Shown here piece after piece: positions 1 through 17,413 of a DNA stretch of 19,161 nt; within the stretch, counting starts at the first letter, position 1, and each line of letters starts with the position of its first letter. The notes under the pieces were generated by a model that was not told the origin of the DNA, did not search any database, and worked only from the letters and a program-made list of their open reading frames with translations. A program made the translations under genes and the position numbers. This DNA is from a virus (lineage: Duplodnaviria > Heunggongvirae > Uroviricota > Caudoviricetes). Where the stretch lies: the IMG/VR virus record IMGVR_UViG_2703718836_000007; one strand, given 5' to 3'.

Positions 1-405
1 ATGGATCAGGTCGTTGTTTTTCAAAAGATGTTTGAGCAAGTGAGAAAAGAGCAAAACTTCTCCTGGTTTTATTCAGAATTAAAACATCACCGTATTGCAC
101 ATTACATTTATTATCTGGCTACGGATAACATCAGAATTATTACTCACGATGATACGGTTTTGTTATTAAGAGGAACCAGGAACCTGTTAAAAGTTAGTAC
201 GACCAAGAACCCTGCTAAAATAAAAGAGGCCGCATTGCTCCATATTTGCGGAAAATCTACATTTCGGGAATACTGTTCAACACTGGCAGGCGCGGGCGTT
301 TTCCGGTGGGTTACTGATGTTAATCATAACAAACGCAGTTACTACGCCATTGATAATACGCTTTTATATATTGAAGATGTAGAAAATAATAAACCATTAA
401 TCTAG
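1..405 (+). CDS. ycgX: YcgX-like small protein (DUF1398-type), host/island flank
   Basis: 134-aa ORF starting at window base 1, directly upstream of iraM in the order I recall for E. coli (ycgX beside iraM). Identification is by remembered length and context, not a search. Confidence 0.5.
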   Translation: MDQVVVFQKMFEQVRKEQNFSWFYSELKHHRIAHYIYYLATDNIRIITHDDTVLLLRGTRNLLKVSTTKNPAKIKEAALLHICGKSTFREYCSTLAGAGVFRWVTDVNHNKRSYYAIDNTLLYIEDVENNKPLI

Positions 406-616
406 CTAAAGTTGGATACTTAAGAAATGCTTCATAATTCAGTAAGGCATTAGCATAATGGAAATAAAAGTGCAGAGACTATCTCTATGGATGATTAATA
501 CTGTCTTTTTATTGTCACCCATAAATAATCACCAGACTAATACTATCAACTTGATATTTGAAATGTGATCACTTGACTTTTGATACGTTATTTTATAACG
601 GTTAACATATTTATAA

Positions 617-661
617 AAACAACGGCCGTGCCACACGTCCGTTTCAATACTTAACGCACAT
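617..661. repeat. Second copy of the icd-terminator-like hairpin plus about 20 bp of 3' flank
   Basis: aacaacggccgtgccacacgtccgtttcaatacttaacgcacatg closely matches 1485-1527 (aacaacgggcgtgttatacgcccgtttcaatatttaacacatg). GC hairpin followed by a T-rich run on the minus strand. Confidence 0.5.
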
Positions 662-1019
662 GTATTTTGGTTTAGTCATCATCCGGTTATATGTATTTTA
701 GCCAGGAACAGGTTAAATCATTCCTATATAACTCAAAAATTGAAACCTTATTCTCATGTCATGCTTATATTCATTATTATCGTTATATAAAAAGGCAACC
801 ATAATGTTTAGCAAATTGGCACAAAGTAGCATAAAGGCTATGTTTTAATTACAGGATGTTCAGTCATTTGAATGTATAACATTATAGCTAAACAAATCTA
901 AAACGAAGTCAATAATTTATTGCTTTCACAAAATCTCATTTTGTTTAACATCCATTGAGATTCCTTGCTTTAAATTTTATTTTATATAAGCCATCATTTT
1001 AATTAATTTATTTTTTTGA

Positions 1020-1028
1020 GGGGGGGGG
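1020..1028. repeat. G9 homopolymer tract about 80 bp upstream of the iraM start
   Basis: Uninterrupted run of 9 G inside otherwise very AT-rich intergenic DNA (tttttttgagggggggggtaatatact), next to -10-like tatact. Confidence 0.7.
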
Positions 1029-1105
1029 TAATATACTCATATGCAAAATCAAGAAATAAACATCCTAATGAACCATATTAAATACCGTGGGATAAGACAT
1101 AACAA

Positions 1106-1429
1106 ATGAAGTGGATAGTAATTGACACGGTAATTCAACCTACATGTGGTATATCTTTTTCAGCCATATGGGGTAATATGAAAATGATCATCTGGTATCA
1201 ATCTACTATATTTCTCCCTCCTGGCAGTATATTTACACCGGTTAAGTCTGGTATTATCCTTAAGGATAAAGAATATCCTATTACTATTTATCACATCGCA
1301 CCATTCAACAAGGATTTATGGAGTTTACTCAAAAGCAGTCAAGAGTGTCCTCCAGGAGAAAGCAAAATAACAAATAAATGTTTACATAATAGTTGCATTA
1401 TAAAAATATGCCCATATGGGCTCAAGTAA
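1106..1429 (+). CDS. iraM: Anti-adaptor protein IraM (RssB inhibitor, stabilises RpoS)
   Basis: 107-aa [15 protein letters not shown]...[11 protein letters not shown] matches my memory of IraM/YcgW in sequence and length. AT-rich, and adjacent to the icdC remnant in the expected orientation. Confidence 0.75.
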
Positions 1430-1484
1430 TGGGCTTCATATAAATATGCTCGATATGCTATTAATAATATCCACATAAATAAAA

Positions 1485-1512
1485 CAACGGGCGTGTTATA
1501 CGCCCGTTTCAA
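1485..1512 (-). terminator. Rho-independent terminator of the displaced icd 3' end, possibly bidirectional and also serving iraM
   Basis: Hairpin aacgggcgtgttatacgcccgtt lies immediately downstream (minus strand) of the icdC stop and is followed by a T-run on the minus strand. Confidence 0.55.
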
Positions 1513-1531
1513 TATTTAACACATGGAGAGA

Positions 1532-1692
1532 TTACATGTTTTCGATGATCGCTTCACCAAACTCTGAACATTTCAGCAGCTTAGCGCCTTCCATCAGACG
1601 TTCGAAGTCATAAGTTACGGTCTTGGCATTGATTGCGCCTTCCATACCTTTAACAATCAGGTCAGCCGCTTCAGTCCAACCCATATGGCGCA
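1532..1692 (-). pseudogene. icdC: icdC: displaced 3' fragment of isocitrate dehydrogenase left at the prophage attR junction
   Basis: Minus-strand translation reads [54 protein letters not shown], the Icd C-terminus. There is no upstream icd coding sequence, and similarity stops abruptly near 1692. Confidence 0.85.
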
Positions 1693-1885
1693 GCAGTATA
1701 TAAAAACCATGAATTCAAGTCATTGATATTTAACGATAAAAATTATTTTATTGTCTTTTTATTAGCCAAAATAAACTTTATTCAACCGTTTGATTTCATT
1801 GACGTTCGTTTTTATTTTGGGGAAAGGTTTTCTCTACCATTTATATCCAAATTACAAGTCTACATTTTATTAACATCTCAATACA

Positions 1886-1916
1886 TGTGAGGCCTTGCAG
1901 ACCTTTGTGAGACCTT
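1886..1916. promoter_or_regulatory. Two 11-bp direct repeats (tgtgaggcctt / tgtgagacctt) 20 bp apart, with a partial third copy between; candidate recombinase or Xis arm-type binding sites
   Basis: 10 of 11 bp identical, spaced two helical turns apart, in a 700-bp noncoding stretch about 200 bp inside the attR junction. Confidence 0.25.
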
Positions 1917-2396
1917 ATGTGTCTCTGTTTTGTCCCAACTTATGTTAAGAGGCACATAATTAAAAATAAGATAACGATGCCGCCAAGCAGTGCAAAACCT
2001 TGTTTACTCCACGACTGTCTGCCCCATTATCTGCATACATAATTATCCTCCATAACTGAGATAAATGTCGGTTATGAGCGAACAACAGACGTTTAGTTTA
2101 TGATGGCTGTGTCTATACATTAAACATAACATCCATTACCGGCACCGCTTATTAATTGCTATCTGATATTGTCACTAAAAAAATAGGCATTCCCCGATAT
2201 AATAATCACAAAGAAGCTTTTGGTGCTGGCAATCGGTATACCTCATAGTGGACTGCGACTTTCCGGGCACGACAAGGATATATCAATGTATGAGCAGGAA
2301 AATTAGACCGTGGTGCGTCATATGATGACTAAGCACGGATAACAGCTACTTAATTGAAACTATTGATTATATTACAGCCAGTGCCTTATAGGATGG

Positions 2397-3518
2397 TTAG
2401 TCATCAACCGCGACTCCTGCACAATCATGGGCTATTGCCAGCAATTGTTTTTTAATTGCTTTAGCATCTACCGTCATATCTACTGTAGCAAAATGGATCT
2501 TATGTCCCTGAGTGACAACATACTCATTAAGCATATAGCCAACAGCTGGATGAAGTAGAAGACCAGCGGCATTGAGCGAAAGCGGATCCGTCTTGTTCTC
2601 CTGTGTTCTAAGGTAGGTATATAGCTGATAAATATAGCCATTACGTAGTGATTGCTCCCGATGCCAACCCTTTGTCAGAATCGAATTAAATTTGGTATCG
2701 ATAATAATACGCCGCTGGGCAGTCTTGTGTTCCAGAATAATGTCTGACTTCATTGTCGGGAAAATCTCTGCACTACCTGCACTTTGATCGCTCAACGCCC
2801 ATTTCAGCTCTTTCCCTGCAGAGACCTGCCAAGTTGTTTTGGCAAGGTGTACACGATATAAGCCAGCGATACCTTTTTCAAATAGTCTTCTCATCCAGTA
2901 AAGGTTATTTGAGGGCGCAGGTAAAAGATATTGGCCTTGATCTTCGGTCGGCATCAGCAGTTCAAAAGCTAATCGTGCGGCATCGACCATCGGTTTATCT
3001 GCGGCATCATGGCGTCCAAAACGCCACACTGAGGGTAATTCGCGGGGGGCAGGATATCCTCCATTTATCCCCTCACGGCGAAGTGATATTGCCATAAAAT
3101 GGCAATCTGCCGCCAAAGACGGTTTCACTATGATTGAGGCCAGACGTTCTAACGCACAGCGAACATAGCGATTTCGGGGGGTGTTGAGGGTTATGTCTTG
3201 AAAATGGCAGGCAACCTGTCCCCGTTCCAGCAGTTGATGACTGGCAGTATACAGTATGTCAATGCGCCCTCTCACCCGGTTCAGGGCCGCATGACAAGTT
3301 TGGTATCCCATATTTAAATTGCGACGTCGGCGCAGCGTAATCTCATGAAGGAGGATTGTCGCCACCAGGTCGGGGATTTCTGCTGGGTTATCTTCTACTG
3401 CGATCTGATTGCGCCCTAACTGGCGAAACAGATCTGAAGCGTACAGCATCAGCATCCAGATATTTCGCATGGGAATACGTGATGCTGTATGTTGCTCACT
3501 CCCGGTTATTGTCGTCAT
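2397..3518 (-). CDS. McrC-family nuclease subunit of a McrBC-type modification-dependent restriction system
   Basis: 373 aa. N-terminus IPMRNIWMLMLYA resembles E. coli McrC IPVRNIYYMLTYA. C-terminal PD-(D/E)xK-like core SDIIL...RRIIIDTKF...YIYQLYTYL...GLLLHPAVG. Its start overlaps the stop of the upstream McrB-like gene (translational coupling). Confidence 0.8.
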   Translation of the reverse strand: MTTITGSEQHTASRIPMRNIWMLMLYASDLFRQLGRNQIAVEDNPAEIPDLVATILLHEITLRRRRNLNMGYQTCHAALNRVRGRIDILYTASHQLLERGQVACHFQDITLNTPRNRYVRCALERLASIIVKPSLAADCHFMAISLRREGINGGYPAPRELPSVWRFGRHDAADKPMVDAARLAFELLMPTEDQGQYLLPAPSNNLYWMRRLFEKGIAGLYRVHLAKTTWQVSAGKELKWALSDQSAGSAEIFPTMKSDIILEHKTAQRRIIIDTKFNSILTKGWHREQSLRNGYIYQLYTYLRTQENKTDPLSLNAAGLLLHPAVGYMLNEYVVTQGHKIHFATVDMTVDAKAIKKQLLAIAHDCAGVAVDD

Positions 3519-5497
3519 TTTGCTAATAACACTTTTCTGGCTTCATCGACTTTATTTGGAGCATCGAACCAATATTCGGCGAGCAAAGGGCAGATCTCTG
3601 TATCAACGACTTGTTCATACCAAGCCTGGGCATCGTTGATTTTTTGGCCGATAGCTGGGGTGACATAGCTGTGACCGATACAAAACTGTGGTCCTAAGGT
3701 AACATCTTTTGCCAGCATATCGTTTAATACCGTCAGTCGAGATTTGATGAATGCTAACATGTCAAAATCAATTGCGTAATTATAATTTACCCAGTTTCTC
3801 CACGCGTCATTAAAAGCTGGCTTTAGATCGATAAACGCGAAACGACGGCGCAGCGCTAGGTCAAGTAGTGCGAGTGAGCGGTCTGCAATATTCATCGTAC
3901 CGATGATATATAGATTCTCAGGAATGTATATTTTTTCATCAGCATTTTTAGGATAGGAAAGAGATAATGCCTCAGTCGGCGTGCGTTTATCTGCTTCCAT
4001 CAACGTGAGTGTTTCACCGAAGATTTGCGCCGGATTGCCACGATTAATCTCTTCAATTATCACCACATATTTCGAGGTAGGATTATTGACTGCAGTTTTG
4101 ATTGCATTTACAAAAGGTCCATCAATTAGCGTCAATTGCCCTTCTTTACCTGGACGCCAGCCTCGAATAAAGTCTTCGTAAGAGAGGTTCGGGTGAAATT
4201 GCACCGCGCTAATACGCTCAGGTGCTTTTTCTCCCATCAAGCAGTACGCCAGACGTCGCGCTAACCAAGTTTTTCCAGTTCCGGGTGGTCCTTGTAATAT
4301 CAGGTTTTTCTTGTCGATCAGGCGCTGAAGTGTGAGTTGGATCTTAGCCTCTTCCAAGAAACAGCCATCCTGCACCAGATGACTGATGTCATAAGGAACG
4401 TGGGTGAGTTTTGGCAACAGCGCACTCTCTTCGACAGTTTCCTCAGTTATCGTCTGGGATTCGTTTTTCTCAAAATTCAGGTATTCATAATTTCCGGACT
4501 CGAGGGACTTTAACTCATCATCATTGCATAGTTTCTGTAGATAAAAGTAGATTGAGCTTGTAACAGTTTTGCTCTCAGGATGCTCTACCTTGAATACGTC
4601 CAAGTAGTTTTCTTCCAACTCCGAAGCAGTGAAATAAGGGCCATTTTTTTTCAGGCATAACGCCTTAATTTTATTCAGTAAAGAGGCTTTCCACGTTCTA
4701 TTTGCCACCTCATCTTTAGACTGGCTAAGATCTGTATTCCACGCTGATAAGGAAAGTTCTGGGAAAGAATGAACCGGATAGTTTGGTTGGGTAAAGACCT
4801 CGTTCAGCGCCCGCATAAGACTCAGGTAACTTTGTCCACTACAGCGACCTTTTGCCCCGTTTTTAATGATCTTAATGTTTAACACTGTCTGAATGTAATA
4901 CTGCGACTGGCTATCTAAAGTGGGGTAGAACCAAGGACGGGTCCAGTACAACCCCATGGTGAGATTCCAACCGACATTCATTACTGTAGAAGCGATGTCA
5001 TATGCGGCAGTGAAGTCTGCAGAGTTAGTATTCTGGTTATCCGCAAAGATCATTGCCTGTGAGAACATTTCCCACAAGCATTCAATGTCATTAGGGTCGC
5101 GTGACTTTTCATAACCAAAGAACCAAGATTTTTGGTTATTCAACAGAGGGATTCCGGCAAAGGAGTCAGGAATCGGTTCGTTCACGCCCAACAAATTCGC
5201 TAGCTTGGCAGCAATAATTTTGCGATTGCTGTCGGTCAAGTTACGATTGAACAAGCCCATAGTAGTAAACGGACAAATGTCTTTTAAGGGAAAGATCTCT
5301 CCCATAATAGATTTGTCCTGCAGATGGGACATTCCTTCCACACCCGAGGCAATTAGATGAATACCTTTGACTAATTCATCTCTACGATTTCGCCAAGTCA
5401 GTAACGCGTTGGCAAAAGCCTCATAAAAACTAGCCCAAGCAAACTTGCCATCATGTTCTGCTGTATCCACGGGAACTCCATTATACTTGTTGAGCAA
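3515..5497 (-). CDS. McrB-family AAA+ GTPase with a long (~390 aa) non-canonical N-terminal domain
   Basis: 660 aa. The C-terminal ~270 aa align with E. coli McrB: LILQGPPGTGKTWLARRLAYCLMGEKAP, VVIIEEINRGNPAQIFGETLTLME, YIPENLYIIGTMNIADRSLALLDLALRRRF, CIGHSY, PLLAEYWFD. The N-terminal 390 aa (W/Y-rich) do not resemble the ~160-aa McrB DNA-binding domain. Confidence 0.85.
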   Translation of the reverse strand: MLNKYNGVPVDTAEHDGKFAWASFYEAFANALLTWRNRRDELVKGIHLIASGVEGMSHLQDKSIMGEIFPLKDICPFTTMGLFNRNLTDSNRKIIAAKLANLLGVNEPIPDSFAGIPLLNNQKSWFFGYEKSRDPNDIECLWEMFSQAMIFADNQNTNSADFTAAYDIASTVMNVGWNLTMGLYWTRPWFYPTLDSQSQYYIQTVLNIKIIKNGAKGRCSGQSYLSLMRALNEVFTQPNYPVHSFPELSLSAWNTDLSQSKDEVANRTWKASLLNKIKALCLKKNGPYFTASELEENYLDVFKVEHPESKTVTSSIYFYLQKLCNDDELKSLESGNYEYLNFEKNESQTITEETVEESALLPKLTHVPYDISHLVQDGCFLEEAKIQLTLQRLIDKKNLILQGPPGTGKTWLARRLAYCLMGEKAPERISAVQFHPNLSYEDFIRGWRPGKEGQLTLIDGPFVNAIKTAVNNPTSKYVVIIEEINRGNPAQIFGETLTLMEADKRTPTEALSLSYPKNADEKIYIPENLYIIGTMNIADRSLALLDLALRRRFAFIDLKPAFNDAWRNWVNYNYAIDFDMLAFIKSRLTVLNDMLAKDVTLGPQFCIGHSYVTPAIGQKINDAQAWYEQVVDTEICPLLAEYWFDAPNKVDEARKVLLAK

Positions 5498-5601
5498 TGA
5501 TAATTTATCTGTGTGAGTTTTAACATATTACTATCAGTTATAGAAAAATTTAACTATCCGATACAGAGAGCGGAATGCTGAATTTGACCTGACTTGCTTC
5601 C

Positions 5602-5636
5602 AACCAATTAAAATCAACTTATTTATCAATTGGTTA
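5602..5636. promoter_or_regulatory. Perfect 8-bp inverted repeat (aaccaatt ... aattggtt) with 19-bp spacer between tfa and the McrB-like gene; candidate operator or weak terminator
   Basis: Palindrome seen directly in the sequence. No U-run follows on the minus strand, so it is not a classical terminator. Confidence 0.25.
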
Positions 5637-5694
5637 TTTTGGCACATGGCGGTCATCAAGGCAATATCGCGTTGTCATAAGGTGTCGAGGCTCG

Positions 5695-5717
5695 GAGGTT
5701 CAAATCCTCTCATACAA
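5695..5717 (+). other. tRNA 3'-end-like fragment (T-arm ggaggttcaaatcctct), resembling the tRNA-Pro T-arm; not a functional tRNA
   Basis: Contains the GGTTCAAATCC T-loop signature flanked by a 5-bp stem. D-arm, anticodon arm and CCA acceptor end are absent. Confidence 0.35.
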
Positions 5718-5830
5718 AAAATAAATAAAATTAATGACGGTTGGAAATTATTCAATACACTCTCGAAAGTACATCAGCCAACCGCAGCACGTTATTGCAT
5801 ATAACGTTTCTGCGGCATATCACAAAACTA

Positions 5831-6415
5831 TTATTCCATAACAGGGATTGCAGGCCACTCAATATCAGGTGCAGTTGATGTATCAACACGATTCAGCAAC
5901 ACCCGATACTTCTTCCAGGCTTCAAGCAACGAGGTTTCTTCCTCCGTTGCGATTTCCAGATCTGCAGCATCCTGAAGCGGGGCAATATGCTCACTGGCTA
6001 CCTGCATCAGGCTGTTTTTTGTTTCTTCCGCCTCCCGGATCCGGAACAGTTTTTCTGCTTCCGTATCCTTCACCCAGGCTGTGCCGTTCCACTTCTGAAA
6101 CTCCCCTTCCGGGGATAACCAGGTGATATTTTCCGGTAGAGGTCCGAGTTCAGAAATAAATAACGAGTCGCCGGAAGCCACGTCATAGACGGTTTTTCCC
6201 CGATGATCTTCAACGAGATGCCACGATGCCTCATCACTGTTGAAAACAGCCACGAAGCCTACCGGAATATCTGGCGGTGCAATATAGGTACTGTTTGCTG
6301 GCAGACCTGTATGAGGCGGAATATATGCGTCACCTTCACCAATAAATTCATTAGTTCCGGCCAGCAGATTATAAATTTTTATGGTCCGTGGTTGTTCACT
6401 CATTCTGAATGCCAT
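5831..6415 (-). CDS. tfa: Tail fiber assembly protein Tfa (lambda Tfa-like)
   Basis: 194 aa, [31 protein letters not shown]...[11 protein letters not shown], near-identical to lambda Tfa as I recall it. Start overlaps the stf stop. Confidence 0.9.
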
Positions 6416-9267
6416 TATGCAAGCCTCACAATGTAGTTAAATGCGATGTTTTTGACGGTGTTTTCCGCGTTACCAGCAGCGTTAACGGTGATGGTGTGTC
6501 CATGTGAGCCAATCGCAACGGAGTGCGTATGAGCACCAATACCGACAGTATGTGCATGTGCGCCTGCGCTTGCAGCAGTGCCGGACAGCGAGTGGGTATG
6601 AGCACCATCTGATGATGTCTTCCCTGCATTACGAGTCTGGCCACTACCGCTTGTTGTGCTCATAATCCCCGCGCTTAGATTTGAAATCGCGGTATAACCA
6701 TTAGGGAAAATGCTCGTGTTCGTGCCACCAAATGCACCGGAACTCTTGTGTTGGTGCGCACCGGCACTATTTGCGGTCCCGCTAATACTATGGGTATGCG
6801 CCCCGGTGTTATTCGTGGATTTGGTTCCGTAATCAAACGACGATGTGGTTTTCGTCCCCAAATCCGTACTGGATGCGCTGGCGCTGTGGGTGTGCGATTT
6901 AATGCCGTCCTGTTCCTGAGACAATACGGCCCGACCACTGGCAGGTTTGCCCTTAATCGTCCAGCCACGCATATCAGGGATCACGCCTGACGGATAAGCG
7001 GCTGCAAGTTTCGGGTAAGCAGATTTGTCAAAAGTCTGCCCCTGCATCAGGGCATAACCAGACGGAACGGTATCTGATGGCCACGGGATTGGTGCGCCGA
7101 CTGGGTAGCTTTCTGGTGGAAGATTTTTCGAGGTATAAACTTCTGCCCAGCCTTCCTCAAAACCATAACCGTCTCTTGAAGAACGGTAGAACAGACCACC
7201 ATTTCTGTAATGCGCCTTCATCTGCAGGGTCCGGCAACTTCCGACTCCGGTATAGAAGTTAACCAGAATATAGCTGTCGCCAGAGCGGGTGACATTGTAA
7301 GCGCCTGATTCGGCATTCCAGGGAACGCCACCATCCGCATCGGCATATGTATCCGTTGCCCTTCTGGCAAAAGCAGCCACATGCGCGGCGGTTAAAGTAA
7401 TATCTTTGGAACCATCAAATGGAACACCGGATATTTTTCTTGCAGTCTGGAGTTTTGTAGCAGTTGCAGCATTACCAGTGGTGTTCTGATTACCCGTAGT
7501 GTTTACACCTGGAAGGTTAATATTTGCAGAACCGTCGAAAACAACTCCACCGATAGATCTTGCCGTCTGCAATTTCGTGGCTGTACTTGCATTACCATTC
7601 AATGAACCAGTTAATCCACCTGTAACAGACAACGGACCTGAAACTGTTCCTCCGGTTGTTGGCAGTGCTCCAATATCTGATGGTGTAGGTTTCTGATGTG
7701 AGCTATACATCGTATAAACAACACCATAGGTAACGCTGGAAGGCTTACTCGCTGAATATGTTGGCGAGGTATAAACAGAAACTGACGCATTTGCAGTACA
7801 ATCCCAATGGATATTTACACTCGTCGCATAATTGCCAATCTCAACGTAAATATCATATGTATCGCCGGATGTGTTGATCCAGGCGAAATTCGTTAATCCG
7901 ACGGCTGTACGCTTCCACAAAGCCCCGGTAATTCCTTTGGGGTTTCCATTGCCTGCTCGTAGAACCAGTTCTGAAATGCCTGCCTGATGTGGGGAACCGA
8001 CGTTGTAACCAGCGCCACCAATCAATGCGATGTAAACGATGGAACTCGCTTGTGGCATGGTAACCGTAGCCAGTTTGAACCACCCAGCCCCGCCAGAGAA
8101 AGACATCGTTACTGAATTTAAAGTACCAATATCTTTCGGCGTTAATGTTATATCCGCAGTCAGTGCTTTTCCGTTAACTTTTCGGTTAGATGGCACCCTG
8201 CTATTCGCATTGTCATTGGCTGCTTTAACTGCTTTTGGCGTTGCGGCCAGCGATTCACTGGTGCTATCAACAGCACTGCTAAGTTTCACAACACCTTTAG
8301 TTGTAAGGCTTGCGTCTTCCATCGCAACTGCACCGGCAATCTCTTCAGCACGATCAGCAGCAGCTTCCGCACGGGTCGCAGCGGATTCAGCAGTAGTTTT
8401 GCTCTGAGATGCCGCCGTCGCACTGCCAGCTGCCTCTGTCGCCTTCGTGGATGCTGTCGTGGCGCTGCCTTTCGCTGCTGATGCCTGTCTGCTCGCCTCA
8501 TCTTTTGAAGCAGACGCAGATGATGCCGATGACGCCGCCGAACTGGCGGACGATGCAGCTGCCATTTTTGAGGATTCTGCACTGGTTTCCGAGGCTTTCG
8601 CGTTCGTTTCGGATGTCTTCGCTGCGGATGCAGACCTCGCTGCTGCGCTGGCCTGTTCAGCGGCTTCGCCAGCCTTCGTTGTGGCTGTTGAAGCAGACGA
8701 TGCGGCGCTTTCTGCCGATTTTCCGGCGGCGGTGGCACTGGCTGAGGCCTGCCCGGCACTTGTTGACGCGGCACTGGCAGACGACGCAGCCGCTGTTTTT
8801 GAGCCTGCCGCAGCCGAGGCGCTCTGTCCCGCTGCCGTTTCAGAAGACCTGGCGTTTGTCTCAGACGTCTTTGCCGCCTTCGCGGAATTGCCTGCCGCCG
8901 TTGCCGAGGAAGCGGCACTACTGGCGCTTGATGATGCGTTCGTTTCTGATGATTTCGCTGCCTCTTTTGAGGCCGCCGCATCCCGGGCTGAGGTGGCTGC
9001 TTCTGACGCCTTCGTGGTCGCGGCGGATGCAGAAGTGGCTGCTGATTGTTGTGACGCTGCCGCATTCGTTTCTGACGTTTTCGCCGCACCGGCACTGGTA
9101 GCTGCCGCGCTTTTTGAGGACTCTGCAGCAGCAGCACTTTTTGCTGCTTCACGGGCCTTTGTCGATGCCGTTCCTGCGCTGGAAGACGCTGACTGAGCCG
9201 ACGACGCGGCCTGTCCGGCTGACGTGCTGGCGGCACGTGCTGAGCCTGCAGCATCGGTTATTACCAC
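6415..9267 (-). CDS. stf: Side tail fiber protein Stf (lambda/Rac-like), N-terminally truncated at a deletion junction; probably non-functional
   Basis: C-terminus [31 protein letters not shown] and the HxH-rich region match lambda Stf. Long Ala/Ser/Thr-rich reiterated segment (KTSETNA units). The ORF opens with GTG at the junction; the canonical Stf N-terminal ~140 aa are missing. Confidence 0.75.
8370..9265. repeat. Reiterated low-complexity coding repeats (Ala/Ser/Thr-rich, recurring KTSETNA units) inside stf
   Basis: Direct reading of the stf translation. This segment generates three long spurious shadow ORFs in other frames. Confidence 0.7.
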
Positions 9268-10117
9268 TTCCCGGATCGCTATACGCTATTCCGTTAAAGA
9301 TAATGGGCGGAATAATGATTTGACGGTCAAAGTTATGATCATCGCTGATGGTGACTGTAACCGTCCCGTTTGGTGTTTCCGTATTACCCCACGTACCAGC
9401 CTGTTTCGGGAATGATTTGGATACAGCTTTAACGAAGTCACCTCTGACCTGAGTCGCCTCCAGCATGCCCTTAATCGTACAGTTTTCATTTACCGTGACA
9501 TTGTTGAGCGTCCCGGCGTTCGCATTCACACTGCCACTGATATCCGCATTTTTAGCGGTCAGCTTTCCGTCCGGTGTCAGGGAAAATGCCGGTGGATTTC
9601 CACCGCTGGTAATGGTGGGGGCCGTCAGGCGTTTCAGGAACACGTCGTTCATGAATATCTGATCGCCCTGACCAACAAACATCGGTTTTGTGTTGCCATT
9701 CGCAGGATTAACCATCGCAATCCTGTCCGCCGCCAGCAGCACCTGACTCTGCATGCCGTCAGGGGTGTTCTCAATATCCACGATGGCCTCTTTTTCCGGT
9801 ACATGCTGCACGGCGGTGATGGCATACGTGCCGTCGTCGTTCTCACGGATACTCACGCAGCGGAACAGGCGCTGGCGCAACGTCGGCAGCTTCAGCCCCC
9901 ATACGCTGTATTCAGCAACGCCGTCAGGAACACGGCTCACTTTCACCTTCACGCCGTCGGTGACGGACTGAACCTCCACGCTGACCGGACTCCCCTGCCC
10001 GTCAACCAGGCTTATCAGCGTGGTGCCGGAAGATGGCAGCGTGATTTCACGGTCGAGCGTCAGCGTCCGGGTCTGGCTGTTTACCGCCAGCACGCGCCCG
10101 CCGGTGCGGATACCCAA
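9149..10117 (-). pseudogene. Fragment of the lambda J-like tail tip host specificity protein
   Basis: Translation [25 protein letters not shown]...[15 protein letters not shown]...[43 protein letters not shown]...DDHNFDRQI matches internal and C-terminal J segments. J is over 1100 aa and only about 270 aa are present. The frame then runs out of register across the stf 5' end. Confidence 0.8.
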
Positions 10118-10335
10118 GCTGGAGTGGCGAACGTTTTACCCTTGCTGATGAGGTATTCACTGATTTCGCTGTACCACATGTGGCTGAGTGCATTCTGGGA
10201 AAGACTGCGTCTCTCGCGCCACGGTTTAAGCACCATGCGAAAGCATTTGCCGTCCTCCAGATAAGGCTGGATCTGCCGACCGATAGCGGTGAAGTTACCG
10301 CGATGCAATTTGATACCATCTTGTGGGAGGTTCAC
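10081..10335 (-). pseudogene. NinB/YbcN-family protein, N-terminal fragment fused by deletion to the J fragment
   Basis: 84-aa ORF with RSLSQNALSHMWYSEIS, resembling the NinB RSLDQN motif and YbcN-like N-termini. Homology ends at about 10095, where J homology begins. Confidence 0.55.
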
Positions 10336-10529
10336 GCTTCACCTCCGCAGAGATCAAACGCTGGATGCAAAATATCGCAGGTGCATTTCTGCATCTGTGA
10401 ATGGAGAAGAGAGGTTGGATTGTATGTGCGCATAAACGTCCCCGTTTAGCGCAGAAGTCACCGGAGTTGTTCAGGCCCCAATGGCATGATTATGGCTGGT
10501 TGATTATTGGAAATCAAATGTGCTGAAAA

Positions 10530-11039
10530 TTAGTCTGCCAAGTCTTCCTCAGTCGCAACTGGGTAATTCCAAATATCAAAAAAAGCTATAGCCTCCTGCC
10601 ATTTGCTCCATAAGTTATCAAGTACTTGTGTAGGTTCCGTACTTTTAAAAACAGAATCAGCCGCATCACCGTTATGAACTTCCTCGTACAGTTCCATTAT
10701 TAGCAGATTAACAAAGTACTGTTTCAACATTAATGCCTGATTACCTTCTTTCTGCTGGCTATCCTGCTTGATGATCTCCATCGCCCGTACTAGGCACCTG
10801 ATGATATCCGCTGCATCATTAACGCTCCATTCAGATCCGCGCTTATCTTTAGCTGATGAATTGGCTCTCTCAGCGCAAGCCTTTAAAGACTCATAAAGGT
10901 AAACTCTATTTTGTAGCTGCAGCGCTTTTTTTGACGTGTACCAACTTGCAAGCGCCGACCCCGCTGCGGCTAATGTGCCAAACGCAGAAATACCTGCTGC
11001 TATTGCACTTAAGTCGGCACTGTCAAAGTTCCACATCAT
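10530..11039 (-). CDS. Uncharacterised protein with a single predicted N-terminal transmembrane anchor
   Basis: 169 aa. Hydrophobic segment LSAIAAGISAFGTLAAAGSALASWY at residues ~10-34, followed by an acidic soluble domain. SD-like aaggtg upstream and an AT-rich promoter-like region at 11040-11297. No homolog recognised. Confidence 0.55.
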   Translation of the reverse strand: MMWNFDSADLSAIAAGISAFGTLAAAGSALASWYTSKKALQLQNRVYLYESLKACAERANSSAKDKRGSEWSVNDAADIIRCLVRAMEIIKQDSQQKEGNQALMLKQYFVNLLIMELYEEVHNGDAADSVFKSTEPTQVLDNLWSKWQEAIAFFDIWNYPVATEEDLAD

Positions 11040-11297
11040 CGTTACACCTTATATAAATACCCCTCAGTAATATCCAATAAGGTATGTGCACAATCAATAT
11101 AATTTTATCCGTATCGGCACATAGCGATTTGAACGCTACTGGTAATGGTATATTTTAGATTATATCGTCCAGTTTACAGCACCCGTATTTTATGAAATGG
11201 ACTCGCATATTACCCAAAAAATGCCAGCACTTCCGTCATCGTAGAATGCTGGCAGTATTTCTAACTAGTGACTTTATTGGAACAGATTCTGACGGAA

Positions 11298-11597
11298 TTA
11301 TGGTAACACTCGACTCCACTTATCATCCAGCCACGGCTGGAATTTTACATGTGCCGTTTCTCTGGCGAGGATTGCTCGCGCTCTGTTGAGTATCTGGGGA
11401 TATTCTTGCTCGATAGAAGTAAAGCGGCCGGCTTCGCGGTGCTCCGCAACCTGAAGTAGTGGAGTAACGTTCTGGCAGGCAGTTAACATCACATCACCTG
11501 CTCGCCATAACCAAGCACGTGCACAAAGTTTGTTATCAGTGAATTGTTTTGTGATTGGGTATTGTTGAACTGCTAGAACGAGAACGCCAGCATCCAT
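11298..11597 (-). CDS. Hypothetical protein, 99 aa
   Basis: ORF with a moderate RBS. Sits where DLP12-type prophages carry ybcL/ybcM. No recognisable motif; could be a gene fragment. Confidence 0.35.
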   Translation of the reverse strand: MDAGVLVLAVQQYPITKQFTDNKLCARAWLWRAGDVMLTACQNVTPLLQVAEHREAGRFTSIEQEYPQILNRARAILARETAHVKFQPWLDDKWSRVLP

Positions 11598-11708
11598 TGG
11601 CAGTCCCTATAGTAAAACCATAGCTCAGGACGCTTCGTTCAGGATAGATAATTTTATTGTACTTACCTAACTTTCTTACTATAGCACGGTTGAAAAAGTG
11701 ATTATTAC

Positions 11709-13235
11709 TCAAAAATAAACCTCACCATCAACCATATATTTGAGAGTACTTATCGCCTGCTGGGCGGATATTGTTTTCATTAAAGGATAGTGTTTAAAAA
11801 CAATGCCATTCATAAAATAGATATCACAGGTTTTATTATCTGTATTGATTATGATTTTTTCGAATGTTTTATAGGCAAGTGTACGACATAGCTCTCGCCC
11901 ATTTTTACTGGTTAAGTCAATAGCATGAAAATCACCAAGTGAACTCACCGCTTTACTCTTCAAAGTTTTTAATGATACAGAAGCCCTTCGTAATTCCTTA
12001 TCTAATACTCTGATTTTTTCTGCTATAGCGGTAACTTCAGGCGCAACAGATAATGCAGCAATTAAATTATTAATTTTCATCTGGAGCTCAATAATTTTCA
12101 ACTCTAAAGTTTCATTAGCATCTTTCTTGTTTTCAACTGGTTGGATTTTACTACAATTAAAAAGCAACTCATTAATGATATTATAATCAACCAAATCTCT
12201 CTTTATTGATGGCCTGTCACATCGATGCAGTCTTCTCATCGGACAAACATAATAGCCATGCAAACTTCCAGATACCGCATGAACAATCATGGTATTACCA
12301 CAAGCCTCGCACTTCATAACTGTTCGAAGTAGATTTATCAACATAGGATTTTTGCTACTATTGCTAATACCAAAAGGTGCCAACCGAATTTCCTGCACAG
12401 CGTAAAACAAATCATCTGATATGACTCTGGGATAATAGCCAGCGATTTCACTTATTCCTTTACCTCTTGCACGATATGAAGGTACGCATATACCTATCAG
12501 AGCTTTATTCGCTAATAATTTTTCAATTACAGAAGGTCCCCATGCACTTTCTTTTCCTGAGAAATTCTTTACAGCATGATCATTTAAATACTTGGCTATT
12601 GCATTCAATGAGCGCCTTTCCATCCTGAGTTTAAAAATTAGCTCAATAGTTTTCACCCTGTCGGGGTCTGGAACAAAAGCCGTTCTTTTGTCATCCAATG
12701 AGAGCCATCTCGGACAAGACGCCGTCATAATCGTGCCTGACTCCAGTGCATCCTGCCGTTTTTTCTTCCATGATAATTTAACCCGACTTGACTTTATCTC
12801 GCTTTCTTCATTTGCCCTTTGTGCTATAAGTATGGCTTTTATTAATGAATATGGCTCATTCAATGAGTCAATATTATAGACTGTATTATCGCAAAGAGTT
12901 ATAACATCAATACCGTGATTCAAAATCAATTTCAGACGCTCAATCGCCTCACCGACTTTTTCTCTTGAAAGTCTGTCCAGACTTTCAACTAACAATGTAG
13001 TCCCTGGCAATATATAACCATGTTCTATAGCATCTAAAAATTCCGAAAAAGCTCCTGATTGTGCATGCTTTCCATTGAATGCGCTTAACCCCAAATCTTC
13101 ATACGTTACGGTATCAAGGTAATAATCACTATTTACCTTTAGCCATTCAGTAATAAGCCTTCTCTGGCGGTTTAATGAATCACCAGACATCTGACTTGGT
13201 GATGAAAATCGCATATATGCTATGGCTTTTTTCAT
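11709..13235 (-). CDS. ybcK: Large serine recombinase (YbcK-like, resolvase/invertase N-terminal catalytic domain)
   Basis: 508 aa. N-terminal AIAYMRFSSPSQ serine-recombinase catalytic motif. Low GC. Downstream of emrE, as in the DLP12 emrE-ybcK arrangement I recall. Confidence 0.75.
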   Translation of the reverse strand: MKKAIAYMRFSSPSQMSGDSLNRQRRLITEWLKVNSDYYLDTVTYEDLGLSAFNGKHAQSGAFSEFLDAIEHGYILPGTTLLVESLDRLSREKVGEAIERLKLILNHGIDVITLCDNTVYNIDSLNEPYSLIKAILIAQRANEESEIKSSRVKLSWKKKRQDALESGTIMTASCPRWLSLDDKRTAFVPDPDRVKTIELIFKLRMERRSLNAIAKYLNDHAVKNFSGKESAWGPSVIEKLLANKALIGICVPSYRARGKGISEIAGYYPRVISDDLFYAVQEIRLAPFGISNSSKNPMLINLLRTVMKCEACGNTMIVHAVSGSLHGYYVCPMRRLHRCDRPSIKRDLVDYNIINELLFNCSKIQPVENKKDANETLELKIIELQMKINNLIAALSVAPEVTAIAEKIRVLDKELRRASVSLKTLKSKAVSSLGDFHAIDLTSKNGRELCRTLAYKTFEKIIINTDNKTCDIYFMNGIVFKHYPLMKTISAQQAISTLKYMVDGEVYF

Positions 13236-13427
13236 GGTGACACCTGCTAAAGTATGCTTTTATAAACCTTAGTGGTGAGATATGATTTTTGTTTAATTTT
13301 TATTTAAAAAGACAATTAAGGTCACATTATCTTGAATATACAACAATAATCGTATTGCAATTTTCTTACACCATAATCTTGAAAGCACAAAAGAATGAAT
13401 AAAAACTAAAGACATTAACAAAAAGCA

Positions 13428-13462
13428 TAAAACGAGGCCCATATAAATATACGAGCCTCCAT
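13428..13462 (-). terminator. Candidate rho-independent terminator downstream of emrE
   Basis: Imperfect hairpin (gaggc...atat / atat...gcctc) followed by a U-rich tract on the minus strand. Confidence 0.3.
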
Positions 13463-13490
13463 ATTTTAGTCGTTTAAAAACAAATTATTT

Positions 13491-13823
13491 TTAATGTGGT
13501 GTGCTTCGTGACAATAAATTAATAACCAACACACCGGCACAAATCAACATCATGCCTATAATGGCTGGCAGGTCCAACCGTTGGCCGAAAAATCCCCATG
13601 ATAGTAAGCTAATCAGGACAATACCGACTCCTGACCAGATAGCATAAGCAATCCCTGTAGGAATATAAGCCAGCGTCTGAGCTAATAACCAGAATGATGC
13701 ACAATAACAAATAATTGTACCAACAGATGGCCATAACCGTGTAAAACCTTCTGAAAACTTCATTAAGGTTGTACCAATGACCTCTGCAAGTATTGCACCA
13801 CCAAGATAAATATAAGGATTCAT
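13491..13823 (-). CDS. emrE: Small multidrug resistance (SMR) efflux transporter EmrE
   Basis: MNPYIYLGGAILAEVIGTTLMKFSEGFTRLWPSVGTIICYCASFWLLAQTLAYIPTGIAYAIWSGVGIVLISLLSWGFFGQRLDLPAIIGMMLICAGVLVINLLSRSTPH, 110 aa from the internal Met, which has an aggaaag RBS. The longer ORF-track start is an artefact. Confidence 0.9.
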   Translation of the reverse strand: MNPYIYLGGAILAEVIGTTLMKFSEGFTRLWPSVGTIICYCASFWLLAQTLAYIPTGIAYAIWSGVGIVLISLLSWGFFGQRLDLPAIIGMMLICAGVLVINLLSRSTPH

Positions 13824-13890
13824 AGCATATTCTTTCCTGTTCAAACTGGAGAGAATTGTACTACAGTTTGAACTCAACTCACCTGTTTCA

Positions 13891-14193
13891 TCATTGTGTA
13901 CCCATTGATGTTCTTTTATATACCCTCAATACCCGTTTCATCGCGGCACTCTGGCGACACTCCTTAAAAATCAAATTCGTGCTCACCTTTCCTTCCCATT
14001 CTTCTCTGGTAGCGAACCGATAATACACCGTTCGCCAGACCTTACCATCAACGACTAGGATTCCTGCCCGCGCCATTTTAGCCGCAGCCTGATTTATGCT
14101 GGTTACCGTTGCGCCTGTTACCGCGGCAACGTCCTGCGCACAGAATTTCTTATGAGTCCCCAGGTAATGAATAATTGACTCTTTGCCCGTCAT
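13891..14193 (-). CDS. ren: Ren protein (lambda Ren-like, Rex exclusion escape)
   Basis: MTGKESIIHYLGTHKKFCAQDVAAVTGATVTSINQAAAKMARAGILVVDGKVWRTVYYRFATREEWEGK... matches lambda Ren. Start overlaps the P stop. Confidence 0.85.
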   Translation of the reverse strand: MTGKESIIHYLGTHKKFCAQDVAAVTGATVTSINQAAAKMARAGILVVDGKVWRTVYYRFATREEWEGKVSTNLIFKECRQSAAMKRVLRVYKRTSMGTQ

Positions 14194-14891
14194 ACCCTTG
14201 CTCCTTTCAGCCCAAACTTAGCTTTGATTTCTGCGATCTTCGCCAGAGCCTGTGCACGATTTAGAGGTCTACCGCCCATGACAGGAAGTTGTTTTACTGG
14301 TTCAGGTATAGCCTCACCACGGTTAATTCGTGCGGTCATACAGGACAGTTCATCGGCAGCCTTGCGCCGTAATTCCGCGTCAGTCAACGCATTGGCCCGC
14401 ATGTTCTGATACAGGTTGGTAACCAGCCAGTAGTGCGCGTTTGATTTCCACGGATAAGACTCTGCATCCGGATACAGCCCGCGCTTCCGGCAATACTCGT
14501 AAACCATATCAACCAGCTCGCTGGCGTTTGGCAGCCCGGCGGTAACGGATGCTTCTTCCCGGCACCAGGCGACAAACTGCCCGGGTGATGGCAGGAATGG
14601 TCGATTCTGCCGACGGGCTACGCGCATTCCAGCGTTAACCTGTTCCATTGTGGTGATCCCGTTTTCCCGAAAAGCCAGCACCCACTGGCGGCGGATTTCG
14701 TTCAGTTCATTCTGGTCACGGTTAGCCAGGCTCGCCGGGAAAGTTGCCAGTAACTGGCTGAACACACCGTTGATGATCTGCGCTACCTGCTGTACCTGTG
14801 GCTTTTCGTCGTACTGTTCCGGCATGTTGTTGGCGATCCGACGCATCTGCTCACGGTCAAAGTTAACCATCTGTGCGGCGATGTTTTTCAT
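14190..14891 (-). CDS. P: Replication protein P (DnaB helicase loader), full length
   Basis: 233 aa, MKNIAAQMVNFDREQMRRIANNMPEQYDEKPQVQQVAQIINGVFSQLLATFPASLANRDQNE..., near-identical to lambda P. Confidence 0.9.
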   Translation of the reverse strand: MKNIAAQMVNFDREQMRRIANNMPEQYDEKPQVQQVAQIINGVFSQLLATFPASLANRDQNELNEIRRQWVLAFRENGITTMEQVNAGMRVARRQNRPFLPSPGQFVAWCREEASVTAGLPNASELVDMVYEYCRKRGLYPDAESYPWKSNAHYWLVTNLYQNMRANALTDAELRRKAADELSCMTARINRGEAIPEPVKQLPVMGGRPLNRAQALAKIAEIKAKFGLKGARV

Positions 14892-15120
14892 AGATCCACC
14901 CCGTAAATCCAGTCAGTGTTTGTCAGGTCGAGTTTTGGTTTGCCGACTGTCACGCCAGCCTGTTGCTTGTTCCGGTTGATTTCGAGCTGGGTCCACTTGT
15001 CGCGGAGTTTGGCCGGACTCAGCACGTTACCGGACCAGAAGTTGTCCTGGCAGGCCCAGCGGAACAGTACACACATGTCGCGGTGGTTACGTCCATCACG
15101 TTCACGCATCAGACGGATAT
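14888..15120 (-). pseudogene. Replication initiator O, C-terminal fragment only (N-terminal origin-binding domain and ori deleted)
   Basis: Translation ends ...[15 protein letters not shown], overlapping the P start as in lambda. The upstream part of the ORF-track ORF is just antisense of exo. The upper boundary is approximate. Confidence 0.6.
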
Positions 15121-15121
15121 C

Positions 15122-15778
15122 GTTACCGGGATCGACGTGAGAGCTGTCGAACAGGGGGATGATGCGTGGCACAAATTACGGCTCGGCGTCATCACCGCTT
15201 CAGAAGTTCACAACGTGATAGCAAAGCCCCGCTCAGGAAAGAAGTGGCCTGACATGAAAATGTCCTACTTCCACACCCTGCTTGCCGAGGTTTGCACCGG
15301 TGTGGCTCCGGAAGTTAACGCTAAAGCACTGGCCTGGGGAAAACAGTACGAGAACGACGCCAGAACCCTGTTTGAGTTCACTTCCGGCGTAAATGTTATT
15401 GAATCCCCGATCATCTATCGCGACGAAAGTATGCGCACCGCCTGCTCTCCCGATGGTTTATGCAGTGACGGCAATGGCCTTGAACTGAAATGCCCGTTTA
15501 CCTCCCGGGATTTCATGAAGTTCCGGCTCGGTGGTTTCGAGGCCATAAAGTCGGCTTACATGGCCCAGGTGCAGTACAGCATGTGGGTGACGCGAAAAGA
15601 TGCCTGGTACTTTGCCAACTATGACCCGCGTATGAAGCGTGAAGGCCTGCATTATGTCGTGGTTGAGCGGGATGAAAAGTACATGGCGAATTTTGACGAG
15701 ATGGTGCCGGAGTTCATCGAAAAAATGGACGAGGCACTGGCTGAAATTGGTTTTGTATTTGGGGAGCAATGGCGATGA
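15122..15778 (+). pseudogene. exo: Lambda exonuclease (Red alpha / Exo), 5'-truncated at a deletion junction with no native start codon
   Basis: [85 protein letters not shown]...[15 protein letters not shown] matches lambda Exo from residue ~10 to the end. The first ~9 codons are replaced by antisense O/P sequence. Confidence 0.8.
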
Positions 15779-15929
15779 CGCATCCTCACGATAATATCCG
15801 GGTAGGCGCGATCACTTTCGTCTACTCCATTACAAAGCGAGGCTGGGTATTTCCCGGCCTTTCTGTTATCAGAAATCCACTGAAAGCACAGCGGCTGGCT
15901 GAGAAGATAAATAACAAACAGGAGGATAT

Positions 15930-16994
15930 ATGAGTCAGGTTGGTAATCATTCATTCGAATTTCCGGCATCGCAAGGTGTACAGGGTGGTACTGTTACACT
16001 CTTCCTTACCATACCAGGAAGATCGCTGGCTCGTTTCCTCGCTTCAGATAATTACGGCCATACACTGGAACGCTCTCAGCGAGAAATTAATCCAAATCGA
16101 GTACGAAAATTTTTAAATTATCTCACTAACGCAGACTCAAGAAATGAGCCTTTTATCATTCCCCCTCTCGTAGGTAACTGTGATTCGAATATAGAATTTG
16201 TACCGTTTGGCAACACAAATGTTGGTATAGCCAGAATTCCCCTCGACGCCGAAATAAAACTTTTTGATGGTCAACATCGTGCAGCTGGCATTGAGATATT
16301 TTGCCGAAGTTCCCCATCAACGCTCATGGTTCCCATGATGCTTACAATGAATCTGCCGCTAAAAACCCGGCAGCAGTTCTTTTCGGACATAAATAACAAC
16401 GTTTCTAAGCCATCAGCGACCATCAATATGGCGTATAACGGCCGGGATGATATTGCTCAGGGAATGATATCCTTCCTGACCCAACATACTGTATTTGCCG
16501 ATATAACCGATTTTGAACACAACGTAGTGCCATTAAAAAGTAATATGTGGGTGAGTTTCAAGGCACTCACTGATGCAACGTCAAAGTTCGCTAGGAACGG
16601 CAATCAACAACTTGAAATGGGATATATAGAATCTGTCTGGGAGGCATGGATTACACTAACTCAGATTGACTCAATCCGACATGGTGTACACCACGCTACG
16701 TACAAGCGCGATTATATTCAGTTCCATGGAGTAATGATTAACGCTTTCGGTTTTGCGGTTCAACAGATGATGGTTAATCATTCCATCGCAGAAATAACTT
16801 CTATGATCGAAAAACTATGTGCAACTACCAGCTCTGCAGAAAGAGAGGATTTTTTTCTGATGGATAACTGGGCGGGGATCTGCACGAAAGCCAGCCAGGA
16901 AAAACTATCTGTTATTGCCAATGTGGCAGCGCAGAAAGCAGCAGCAAACAGACTGATACAAGCTTTTACCAAAGGAAGTCTGGAAACAACTTAA
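15930..16994 (+). CDS. DGQHR-domain protein (DndB-like, ParB/Srx-fold), orphan
   Basis: 354 aa carrying the diagnostic motif in IKLFDGQHRAAGIEIF. Strong SD (caggagg) 7 nt before the ATG. AT-rich relative to the neighbouring lambda genes. No dndCDE, dpd or ssp partner genes in the window. Confidence 0.75.
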   Translation: MSQVGNHSFEFPASQGVQGGTVTLFLTIPGRSLARFLASDNYGHTLERSQREINPNRVRKFLNYLTNADSRNEPFIIPPLVGNCDSNIEFVPFGNTNVGIARIPLDAEIKLFDGQHRAAGIEIFCRSSPSTLMVPMMLTMNLPLKTRQQFFSDINNNVSKPSATINMAYNGRDDIAQGMISFLTQHTVFADITDFEHNVVPLKSNMWVSFKALTDATSKFARNGNQQLEMGYIESVWEAWITLTQIDSIRHGVHHATYKRDYIQFHGVMINAFGFAVQQMMVNHSIAEITSMIEKLCATTSSAEREDFFLMDNWAGICTKASQEKLSVIANVAAQKAAANRLIQAFTKGSLETT

Positions 16995-17071
16995 TGAATC
17001 AACATTGTCTCATATCAGCATGCTGTACGGCGTCTTTAAGGAACGGTGAGCATGAAAAACAAAATCATCAT

Positions 17072-17092
17072 GGAGCTACAGGCTCCTTTTTT
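17072..17092 (+). terminator. Rho-independent terminator downstream of the DGQHR gene
   Basis: ggagc-tacag-gctcc hairpin followed by tttttt. Confidence 0.5.
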
Positions 17093-17147
17093 ATTATTCG
17101 CATTCACCCTCAAGCGTATTAACCAACAATTCAGGGATTAATGAAAG

Positions 17148-17366
17148 ATGGCAGACATCATTGATTCAGCATCAGAAATTGAAGAATTACAGCGCAACAC
17201 AGCAATAAAAATGCGCCGCCTGAACCACCAGGCTATATCTGCCACTCATTGTTGTGAGTGTGGCGATCCGATAGATGAACGAAGACGCCTGGCCGTTCAG
17301 GGTTGTCGGACTTGTGCAAGTTGCCAGGAGGAGATCGAACTTAAGAACAAACAATGGGGACTGTGA
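17148..17366 (+). CDS. TraR/DksA-family C4 zinc finger protein (lambda exo-xis region orf73-like)
   Basis: 72 aa with CCECGDPIDERRRLAVQGCRTCASCQEE, a CxxC...CxxC arrangement like TraR (CEACGNPIPEARRK...CVECQ). Confidence 0.75.
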   Translation: MADIIDSASEIEELQRNTAIKMRRLNHQAISATHCCECGDPIDERRRLAVQGCRTCASCQEEIELKNKQWGL

Positions 17367-17413
17367 TGGCTTCAAAGCAGCAAATTTCAACATCGTCCAA
17401 CTGAGGTGTAAAA

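Follow-up and report, generated by a model that had tools for sequence, protein, structure and literature searches.

How did iraM, whose product stabilises RpoS under low magnesium and which is reported to be PhoP-regulated, come to lie between two near-copies of the terminator of icd? We consider it probable that the two repeats are two generations of the icd terminator, left behind by serial site-specific integration into the icd 3' end. The window, by which we mean the whole stretch of 19,161 nucleotides that was analyzed, begins, at its left end, with the chromosomal DNA of E. coli that lies downstream of icd, the strand shown being the one opposite to that gene. Its features are given below, with the two near-copies called copy A and copy B and with "deep lineage" standing for a deep-branching Escherichia lineage that is described further on.

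1 to 405, plus strand: ycgX, encoding a DUF1398 protein (ORF; Pfam DUF1398, E = 1e-47; RefSeq annotation ycgX), the left neighbor of the repeat structure
406 to 615, no strand assigned: flank L, the sequence found directly downstream of the icd terminator in iraM-less strains
about 458 to 568, within flank L: the small ORF ymgL (coordinates carried over from the RefSeq annotation)
616 to 658, plus strand, hairpin at 621 to 643: copy A, a probable relic icd intrinsic terminator, degraded by three substitutions in the window's lineage
659 to 1105, plus strand: AT-rich (28% GC) noncoding DNA upstream of iraM, a putative remnant of the old island
804 to 848, within that remnant: ymgK
1020 to 1028, within that remnant: a variable poly-G tract
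1040 to 1074, within that remnant: what is left of the start of a YmgB/AriR-like gene
1106 to 1429, plus strand: iraM, an anti-adaptor gene of phage-moron type, 107 aa (ORF; RefSeq annotation)
1430 to 1480, plus strand: iraM 3' flank, homologous to the deep-lineage iraM 3' flank up to 1467
1481 to 1523, minus strand, hairpin at 1486 to 1508 and then GTTTTATTTA on the minus strand: copy B, an intact icd intrinsic terminator
1532 to 1699, minus strand: displaced icd 3' end, an icdC-type pseudogene of the last 50 to 55 codons, 164 nt (ORF; RefSeq partial isocitrate dehydrogenase)
1696 to 19161, no strand assigned: later icd-integrated island (ORFs; prophage remnants, including tail-fibre)
2397 to 3518, minus strand, in the island: McrC-like gene, 373 aa
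3515 to 5497, minus strand, in the island: AAA ATPase, 660 aa
18019 to 19161, in the island: lambda-type integrase (Pfam Arm-DNA-bind_1 and Phage_integrase)

The DNA between the copies has a GC content of 30%, compared with 46% in the icd fragment, whose homology to icd stops at 1695. On the island side, the McrC-like gene and the AAA ATPase probably form an McrBC-type restriction system, and the pair stands at the icdC-proximal end of the island, the place that mcrA takes in e14.

The repeat itself is real and short. A repeat search of the window returned a single direct-repeat family, 616 to 658 against 1481 to 1523, the two members of which agree at 36 of 43 positions (84%) and stand 865 bp apart. 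When copy B was scanned over the whole 19-kb window, copy A was the sole outlier at 36/43 and the next best places scored 23 to 27; the best of 200 Markov shuffles in the same whole-window scan reached 28, and shuffles within 1 to 2400 had a mean of 26 and a maximum of 30. The first-pass annotation had described a duplication of about 45 bp in the same orientation with iraM in between, and the pairwise alignment, set against these shuffles, bears this out. The similarity spans the left A-tract (AAAACA), the 23-nt hairpin, and about 15 nt to the right (TTTCAATAYTTAAC), and since it reaches into both the A-tract and the right flank, it is more than a generic GC stem; the alternative that had been raised at the outset, a generic GC hairpin without flank conservation, thus fails. 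Left of the A-tract and right of about 655 to 664, the flanks of the two copies show no further similarity (z = -1.6 and -1.1), and we ruled out a leftward extension of the repeat given that the left flanks of A and B are unrelated.

Copy B scores as an intrinsic terminator on the minus strand, which is the icd strand, with 9 pairs (6 of them GC) followed by the T-rich tract listed above, and with a fold of -20.7 kcal/mol (z = -4.9). In other strains, intact icd has an identical terminator beside it, and the hairpin core recurs in other Escherichia and Citrobacter. Judged by these features, copy B is probably a working, bidirectional terminator used by icd and by the convergent iraM. It had initially been called the native icd terminator, at 1485 to 1527: an icd terminator it is, but one attached to the 164-nt icd pseudogene and not to a working icd. 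The view of the other copy as a near-duplicate terminator region likewise holds in part, given that the repeat is genuine but copy A in the window's strain is degraded, with three extra substitutions that break the stem and leave one of 5 pairs (-10.5 versus -17.9 kcal/mol). Four sampled loci of other E. coli lineages carry a copy A of AACGGGCGTGCCATACGCCCGTT and then TCAATACTTAAC, with a perfect stem and about 93% likeness to copy B; apart from the loop (CC for TT), a single T>C change, and the right edge, the two are identical. The degraded form, which belongs to the K-12-like lineage that includes the window, was found in about 1440 genomes, and about 2400 genomes fall in the band of 90 to 95% identity to the window 61-mer, which we read as perfect-stem copy A on the basis of the four sampled loci. 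Copy A is probably a relic that is decaying in the K-12-like lineage, and in other lineages it might serve to end ycgX-ymgL transcripts. Nearer to icd, the stretch of roughly 25 nt that separates the icd stop from the terminator hairpin comes in several distinct versions (TTTCAATATTTAACACATGTAGAG, TTATAATATTTAACACATGTGGTA, TTACCGTTTTTAACACATGCAGAA, and others, in loci L001, L036-L038, and L011-L025), a variety in keeping with an icd 3' end that element-borne copies have replaced repeatedly.

The distribution of iraM offers a view of the site without the insert. The iraM segment (662 to 1480) is present in one copy in 3944 of 5426 complete E. coli genomes (73%) and absent from 27%. In 1037 of the 5426 genomes, the left flank of copy A, one B-type copy, and icd are contiguous, which is the single copy that the first-pass annotation had suggested looking for in strains lacking iraM. 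Empty-site strains include N1420, Nissle 1917, and ATCC 11775; we inspected five such sequences (L001, L018, and L036-L038), further B2 strains are named in the match list, and the roughly one dozen strains inspected or named are all B2-type. Two of the inspected empty-site loci have sitA just past the icd fragment. Larger rearrangements account for about 445 other iraM-less genomes; O157:H7, for example, lacks iraM and also gives no ycgX match, and in ET650 an IS1 stands in place of everything from ycgH up to a point about 40 nt short of copy B. In other strains (including L010), the short ycgX-iraM-icd interval is a recurrent site of IS200C and IS1 insertion. None of the 5426 genomes holds a single copy that is an A/B hybrid, the empty sites all being pure B-type in a test that is blind to crossovers in the leftmost 15 nt, and a B2 lineage that never had the insert fits this as well as its loss by crossover within those 15 nt. 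The gene still lies beside an intact icd in strains that have neither e14 nor any other island there (strain 167 and e14-free K-12) and is therefore not part of e14. Contrary to the statement that iraM lies on the e14 prophage (PMC4045071), it sits outside e14, in an older and separate scar.

More of the history is preserved in the deep lineage, which was found through a search for ycgX orthologs, is labeled E. coli, and comprises 17 complete genomes, of which we use loci L047-L050. In rluE, nudJ, and mnmA, which are core genes, it shares about 96% identity with K-12-like strains, compared with 98 to 99.6% for O157 and 90 to 94% for E. albertii. The ycgX and iraM genes of the lineage, at 89% and 81% identity (the latter at the nucleotide level), are far more diverged than these flanking core genes, suggesting that the interval may have been exchanged between lineages, which weakens arguments from parsimony. 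We rejected ycgX-like proteins of other species as outgroups, given that those of Escherichia sp. E10V10 (77%) and E. albertii (70%) are paralogs in other contexts, namely, the fli-yed region and a lambdoid prophage.

The deep-lineage interval is 6.3 kb long and, in L048, L049, and L050, runs from ycgX through flank L, copy A, an IS3-like fragment, a YmgB-like gene, and iraM to the terminator of iraM, trkG, a transposase remnant, a 455-aa ORF that matches no Pfam family, an e14-type arm (TTTTGATAAAATTTTGATAACCGTTAGC), a terminator, and intact icd. Window positions 1 to 654, flank L included, align to L048 at 80.6%. Right of the deep-lineage copy A come about 200 nt resembling an IS3-family transposase gene and then a region homologous to 711 to 982 of the window; 1040 to 1074 is homologous to L047 and L048 as well, and there the complete YmgB/AriR-like gene comes next (84 to 86 aa in L047-L050, Pfam YmgB), of which the window keeps the first 35 nt or so. 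The copy A of L048 and the icd 3' flank align colinearly for 67 nt (local-alignment P = 0.012), a stretch with an exact 13-mer, ACATATTCTTGAT, that spans the icd stop codon together with the last four codons; by BLAST, this copy A has 84% identity over query positions 3 to 64 to the icd 3' end of many genomes. The presence of the stop codon and the last four codons makes copy A a stranded icd 3' end and not a mere terminator look-alike. The copies A of the deep lineage and of E. coli share CAATACTTAA, at which the B-type copies examined have T (ATATTT or AGTTTT); from the sequences, we read this as a derived change and the two copies A as orthologous.

At the interval's opposite end, the e14 attL of K-12 carries the same arm sequence as the deep-lineage icd flank, the sharing with e14 extending over only about 38 nt beyond the terminator. 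Repeats of the e14 type, TTTTGATAA, stand beside the icd-proximal terminator in the deep lineage and in the K-12 e14 attL and are absent left of copy B in the window; they are putative integrase-binding sites. The first reading in the first-pass annotation, that iraM was brought by an earlier icd-targeted integration, thus gains support from the single-copy empty site and from the icd codons and e14-type arm of the deep lineage. The left flank of copy A (TTTTATAACGGTTA) also bears a likeness to the e14 arm (TTTTGATAACCGTTA), with z = 1.8 and P = 0.06, which is suggestive only and on which we do not rely.

Set against this interval, E. coli proper misses three pieces: about 215 nt right of copy A, including the icd remnant; the greater part of the YmgB-like gene; and a stretch of about 4.8 kb that runs from the terminator belonging to iraM as far as the arm. 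The last gap closes at an AAAAC that is present at both ends, and in the window the iraM 3' flank, beyond 1467, joins the icd terminator at this tract. Residual icd coding sequence beside copy A in E. coli proper was considered and rejected, given that the 200 nt to its right aligned with the icd 3' end below the shuffle mean; no icd coding sequence was found there. The crossover core, about 165 nt into icd, is absent from copy A everywhere, the deep lineage keeping only the stop and the last four codons. No integrase, excisionase, or recognizable phage gene besides iraM lies between the copies in any genome examined, the window ORFs there being only iraM and ymgK. Since an e14-type crossover core lies about 165 nt inside icd, a repeat of 40 to 47 nt cannot itself be a functional att site, and because it has neither the core nor an integrase, we speak of a scar and not of an attachment site. 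In L047 (GCA_009898965.1), a single deletion has removed flank L, copy A, and the IS3-like fragment (L047 9186 to 9283 versus L048 10405 to 10926), which indicates that the scars themselves are being erased.

The gene between the copies has phage relatives. The iraM family is essentially restricted to Escherichia, and all of the sampled homologs (55 to 73% identity) belong to lambdoid prophages, in which they lie between nanS-p and either the Q antiterminator or stx2AB, read from the opposite strand, and bring a hairpin terminator of their own. This is the arrangement of a classical moron, and the chromosomal iraM is a gene of phage-moron type, with a putative promoter. The deep-lineage iraM terminator, GCCCCTTCGTAGAGGGGC followed by GCATGGTGC, resembles those of the phage iraM morons (GCCCCTyCGnAGAGGGGC followed by GCATGGTGC). 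DNA similarity between the chromosomal iraM and the phage copies stops at the coding sequence, the flanks being unmatched, and the 444 nt upstream of iraM (662 to 1105) have no match in 50,697 phage records; a phage origin of the insert flanks is thus unsupported. IMG/VR held no intact icd-targeting element carrying iraM, all six matches being the same E. coli chromosomal locus inside prophage predictions. Our Pfam scan of IraM did not recover PF11183, although precomputed tables assign this family to IraM homologs, and a relationship to PmrD is therefore not relied on.

The surroundings of iraM provided further observations. Genes for DUF1398 proteins, the ycgX family, also occur as lambdoid-prophage morons beside the lysis cassette or terminase genes (L033 50 to 529; L043 5001 to 5405), in L033 about 5.5 kb from an iraM homolog that is encoded on the same strand; ycgX, too, may thus be a prophage remnant, and an even older one. 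The window has a run of nine G (1020 to 1028) some 80 nt upstream of where iraM starts, in a region of 28% GC; it aligns with the place at which the YmgB-like gene, intact in the deep lineage, has its ribosome-binding region, and it is 9 G long in the window, L003, and L039, 8 in K-12-type L021 and L026, and 5 in L009. The genes phoP-phoQ lie about 5 kb from icd on the side away from iraM (L039 22950 to 25081), making near neighbors of regulator and target, a closeness that may be coincidence.

Taken together, these findings are best explained, in our view, by the following sequence of events. Elements of the e14 and phage-21 kind would bring their own icd 3' end and terminator and push the resident ones to the far side. 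The ancestral order would have been ycgX, flank L, terminator, and icd. An e14-family element with iraM as a moron, a YmgB-like gene, trkG, and others would then have entered icd, stranding the old terminator and old icd 3' end beside flank L as copy A; its integrase would have been of the e14 type, if the arm is a guide. The element would subsequently have decayed, and an IS-related event would have shortened the icd fragment left behind. Three deletions in E. coli proper would then have removed the rest of this fragment, the YmgB-like gene, and the roughly 4.8 kb from the iraM terminator to the arm sites, bringing the island down to 0.8 kb, and the last of them would have joined the iraM 3' flank, at the AAAAC microhomology, to copy B, which was the icd terminator of that time; the direction and order of these deletions are what we infer from the comparison with the deep lineage. 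Finally, icd in the window's strain would have received a second element, equipped with a lambda-type integrase, which would have displaced copy B together with 164 nt of icd. As expected of a scar left at an integration site, the direct repeats around compositionally distinct DNA come from the target gene's 3' end, and there is an empty-site allele with one copy and the same outer flanks.

The main competitor holds that an iraM cassette of about 865 bp entered the icd terminator in a non-B2 ancestor and duplicated about 45 bp of target, with B2 keeping the untouched ancestral site and the deep-lineage island arising as a later elaboration; possible routes are a Campbell-type single crossover of a small circle with a terminator homolog, or gap repair. 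The empty site, clean, single, and pure B-type without one A/B hybrid in the 5426 genomes, speaks for such an insertion, as do the sharp repeat boundaries in E. coli without an icd coding remnant and the frequent placement of B2 as an early-branching phylogroup. We nevertheless judge it unlikely, given that the deep lineage has an orthologous copy A, the upstream region, and iraM within a larger island, with icd codons in copy A, a phage-like iraM terminator, and an e14-type arm abutting icd. The YmgB-like gene start in the window points to deletion and not to a minimal insert, and there is no known mechanism by which a 0.8-kb insert without a recombinase would duplicate about 45 bp of target. 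Moreover, ycgX is 99% alike in B2 and K-12, with the deep lineage the outlier at 89%, which makes loss in B2 more parsimonious than gain, subject to the caveat on exchange raised above. Insertion of a transposon or IS does not fit the site: the insert ends have no inverted repeat, there is no transposase ORF, and the duplication is about 45 bp, compared with 2 to 14 bp for IS elements.

A mobile or dispersed repeat, REP/BIME-like or a self-spreading terminator, that fell by chance on both sides of iraM was the second reading of the first-pass annotation, and we rejected it as very improbable. The unit is a GC-rich hairpin within an AT-rich intergenic region, and IS200C has inserted in the same interval in some strains, both of which might be expected of mobile DNA. 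However, a 61-nt query around copy A matched 1 to 4 places per genome, with a median of 2, in 5402 of the 5426 genomes, compared with the tens to hundreds of dispersed copies of REP/BIME elements. Every repeat copy examined sits at an icd 3' end; L039, for instance, has exactly three (copy A, copy B together with its icd fragment, and the one at the current icd), so that icd ends account for them all. A hairpin scan of one genome per bacterial species returned 15 stretches, 14 of which directly adjoin the icd stop codon and come from Escherichia, Shigella, Citrobacter, or contigs carrying such DNA; the fifteenth is an unrelated hairpin in an Aeromonadaceae genome. Rfam gave no family above threshold over window positions 1 to 2600. 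Less credible still, to the point that we give it hardly any weight, is that two independent terminators came to resemble each other by chance or convergence. Intrinsic terminators do have a common general architecture, but 36/43 exceeds the shuffle maxima of 28 to 30, the identity continues into flanks outside the stem and rises to about 93% in the sampled loci of other lineages, and the copy A of L048 runs on into icd coding sequence.

If serial integration at icd is accepted, a broader picture is conceivable, which we put forward tentatively and with more doubt than confidence: the icd 3' end would be a layered archive in which the order of terminators (A, B with the icd fragment, and current icd) records successive integrations, iraM would be a domesticated moron sharing the bidirectional icd terminator, and in some lineages, or in most of them, copy A would insulate the iraM promoter from ycgX-ymgL. 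The presence or absence of iraM would then be a by-product of recombination at scars that contributes to lineage differences in RpoS control. Serial integration at icd would by itself explain where a studied regulator came from and why it is patchily distributed, iraM being found in nearly three-quarters of the genomes and absent from all B2-type strains inspected or named, and it would offer a worked example of an integration hot spot that gathers nested att-derived repeats and of a phage moron wired to a host terminator. Our literature search found no description of the older, shorter duplication around iraM. The scar is an ordinary one, previously undescribed, in which a known process acts at a known hot spot, and it calls for no new mechanism.

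Among the closest known systems is e14, whose icd/icdC duplication in K-12, with attL and attR, is textbook knowledge (Hill, Gray & Brody 1989, in the form in which the passages on e14 in PMC6379469 and PMC13626634 cite it). In e14 as in the iraM scar, the target is icd, the incoming icd 3' end and terminator leave the old end stranded, and direct repeats surround foreign DNA; an e14-type arm adjoins icd in the deep-lineage iraM island too. The two differ in repeat length, about 40 to 47 nt for the iraM scar versus about 165 nt plus the terminator for e14, and the repeat in the window, unlike that of e14, contains neither icd coding sequence nor the crossover core. Being 0.8 kb long and without an integrase, the iraM scar, unlike e14, cannot excise site-specifically; it lies outside e14 and persists where e14 is missing. 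The window's own island, with its lambda-type integrase, which is also found in O157:H7, is a second and younger case of the same process, having displaced 1481 to 1699, and we take it to be phage-21-like. Unlike the iraM scar, this island keeps its integrase, has an excisionase in relatives, and has a long icd duplication, and its arm repeats are TTTTGGGGAA, compared with TTTTGATAA in the e14 type. In the related strain of locus L039, the same type of integrase stands directly beside the third terminator copy and intact icd.

Outside the enterobacteria, the CIME-type remnants of streptococcal ICEs arise where integrative elements accumulate in tandem at a single att site and decay, and like the icd locus they have several generations of direct att-derived repeats, the older pair of which encloses cargo that has decayed. 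The att sites of CIMEs remain functional and allow mobilization in trans, whereas the older icd repeat has lost its recombination core. The cargo, in turn, can be compared with the morons of lambdoid phages, among which are the iraM homologs next to stx2 and IraL of CFT073 (PMC4045071). Like these, iraM is small, AT-rich, oppositely oriented, self-contained, and of the same family, and in the deep lineage it has a moron-like terminator; unlike the phage morons, iraM on the E. coli chromosome no longer has a terminator of its own and adjoins that of the host gene icd.
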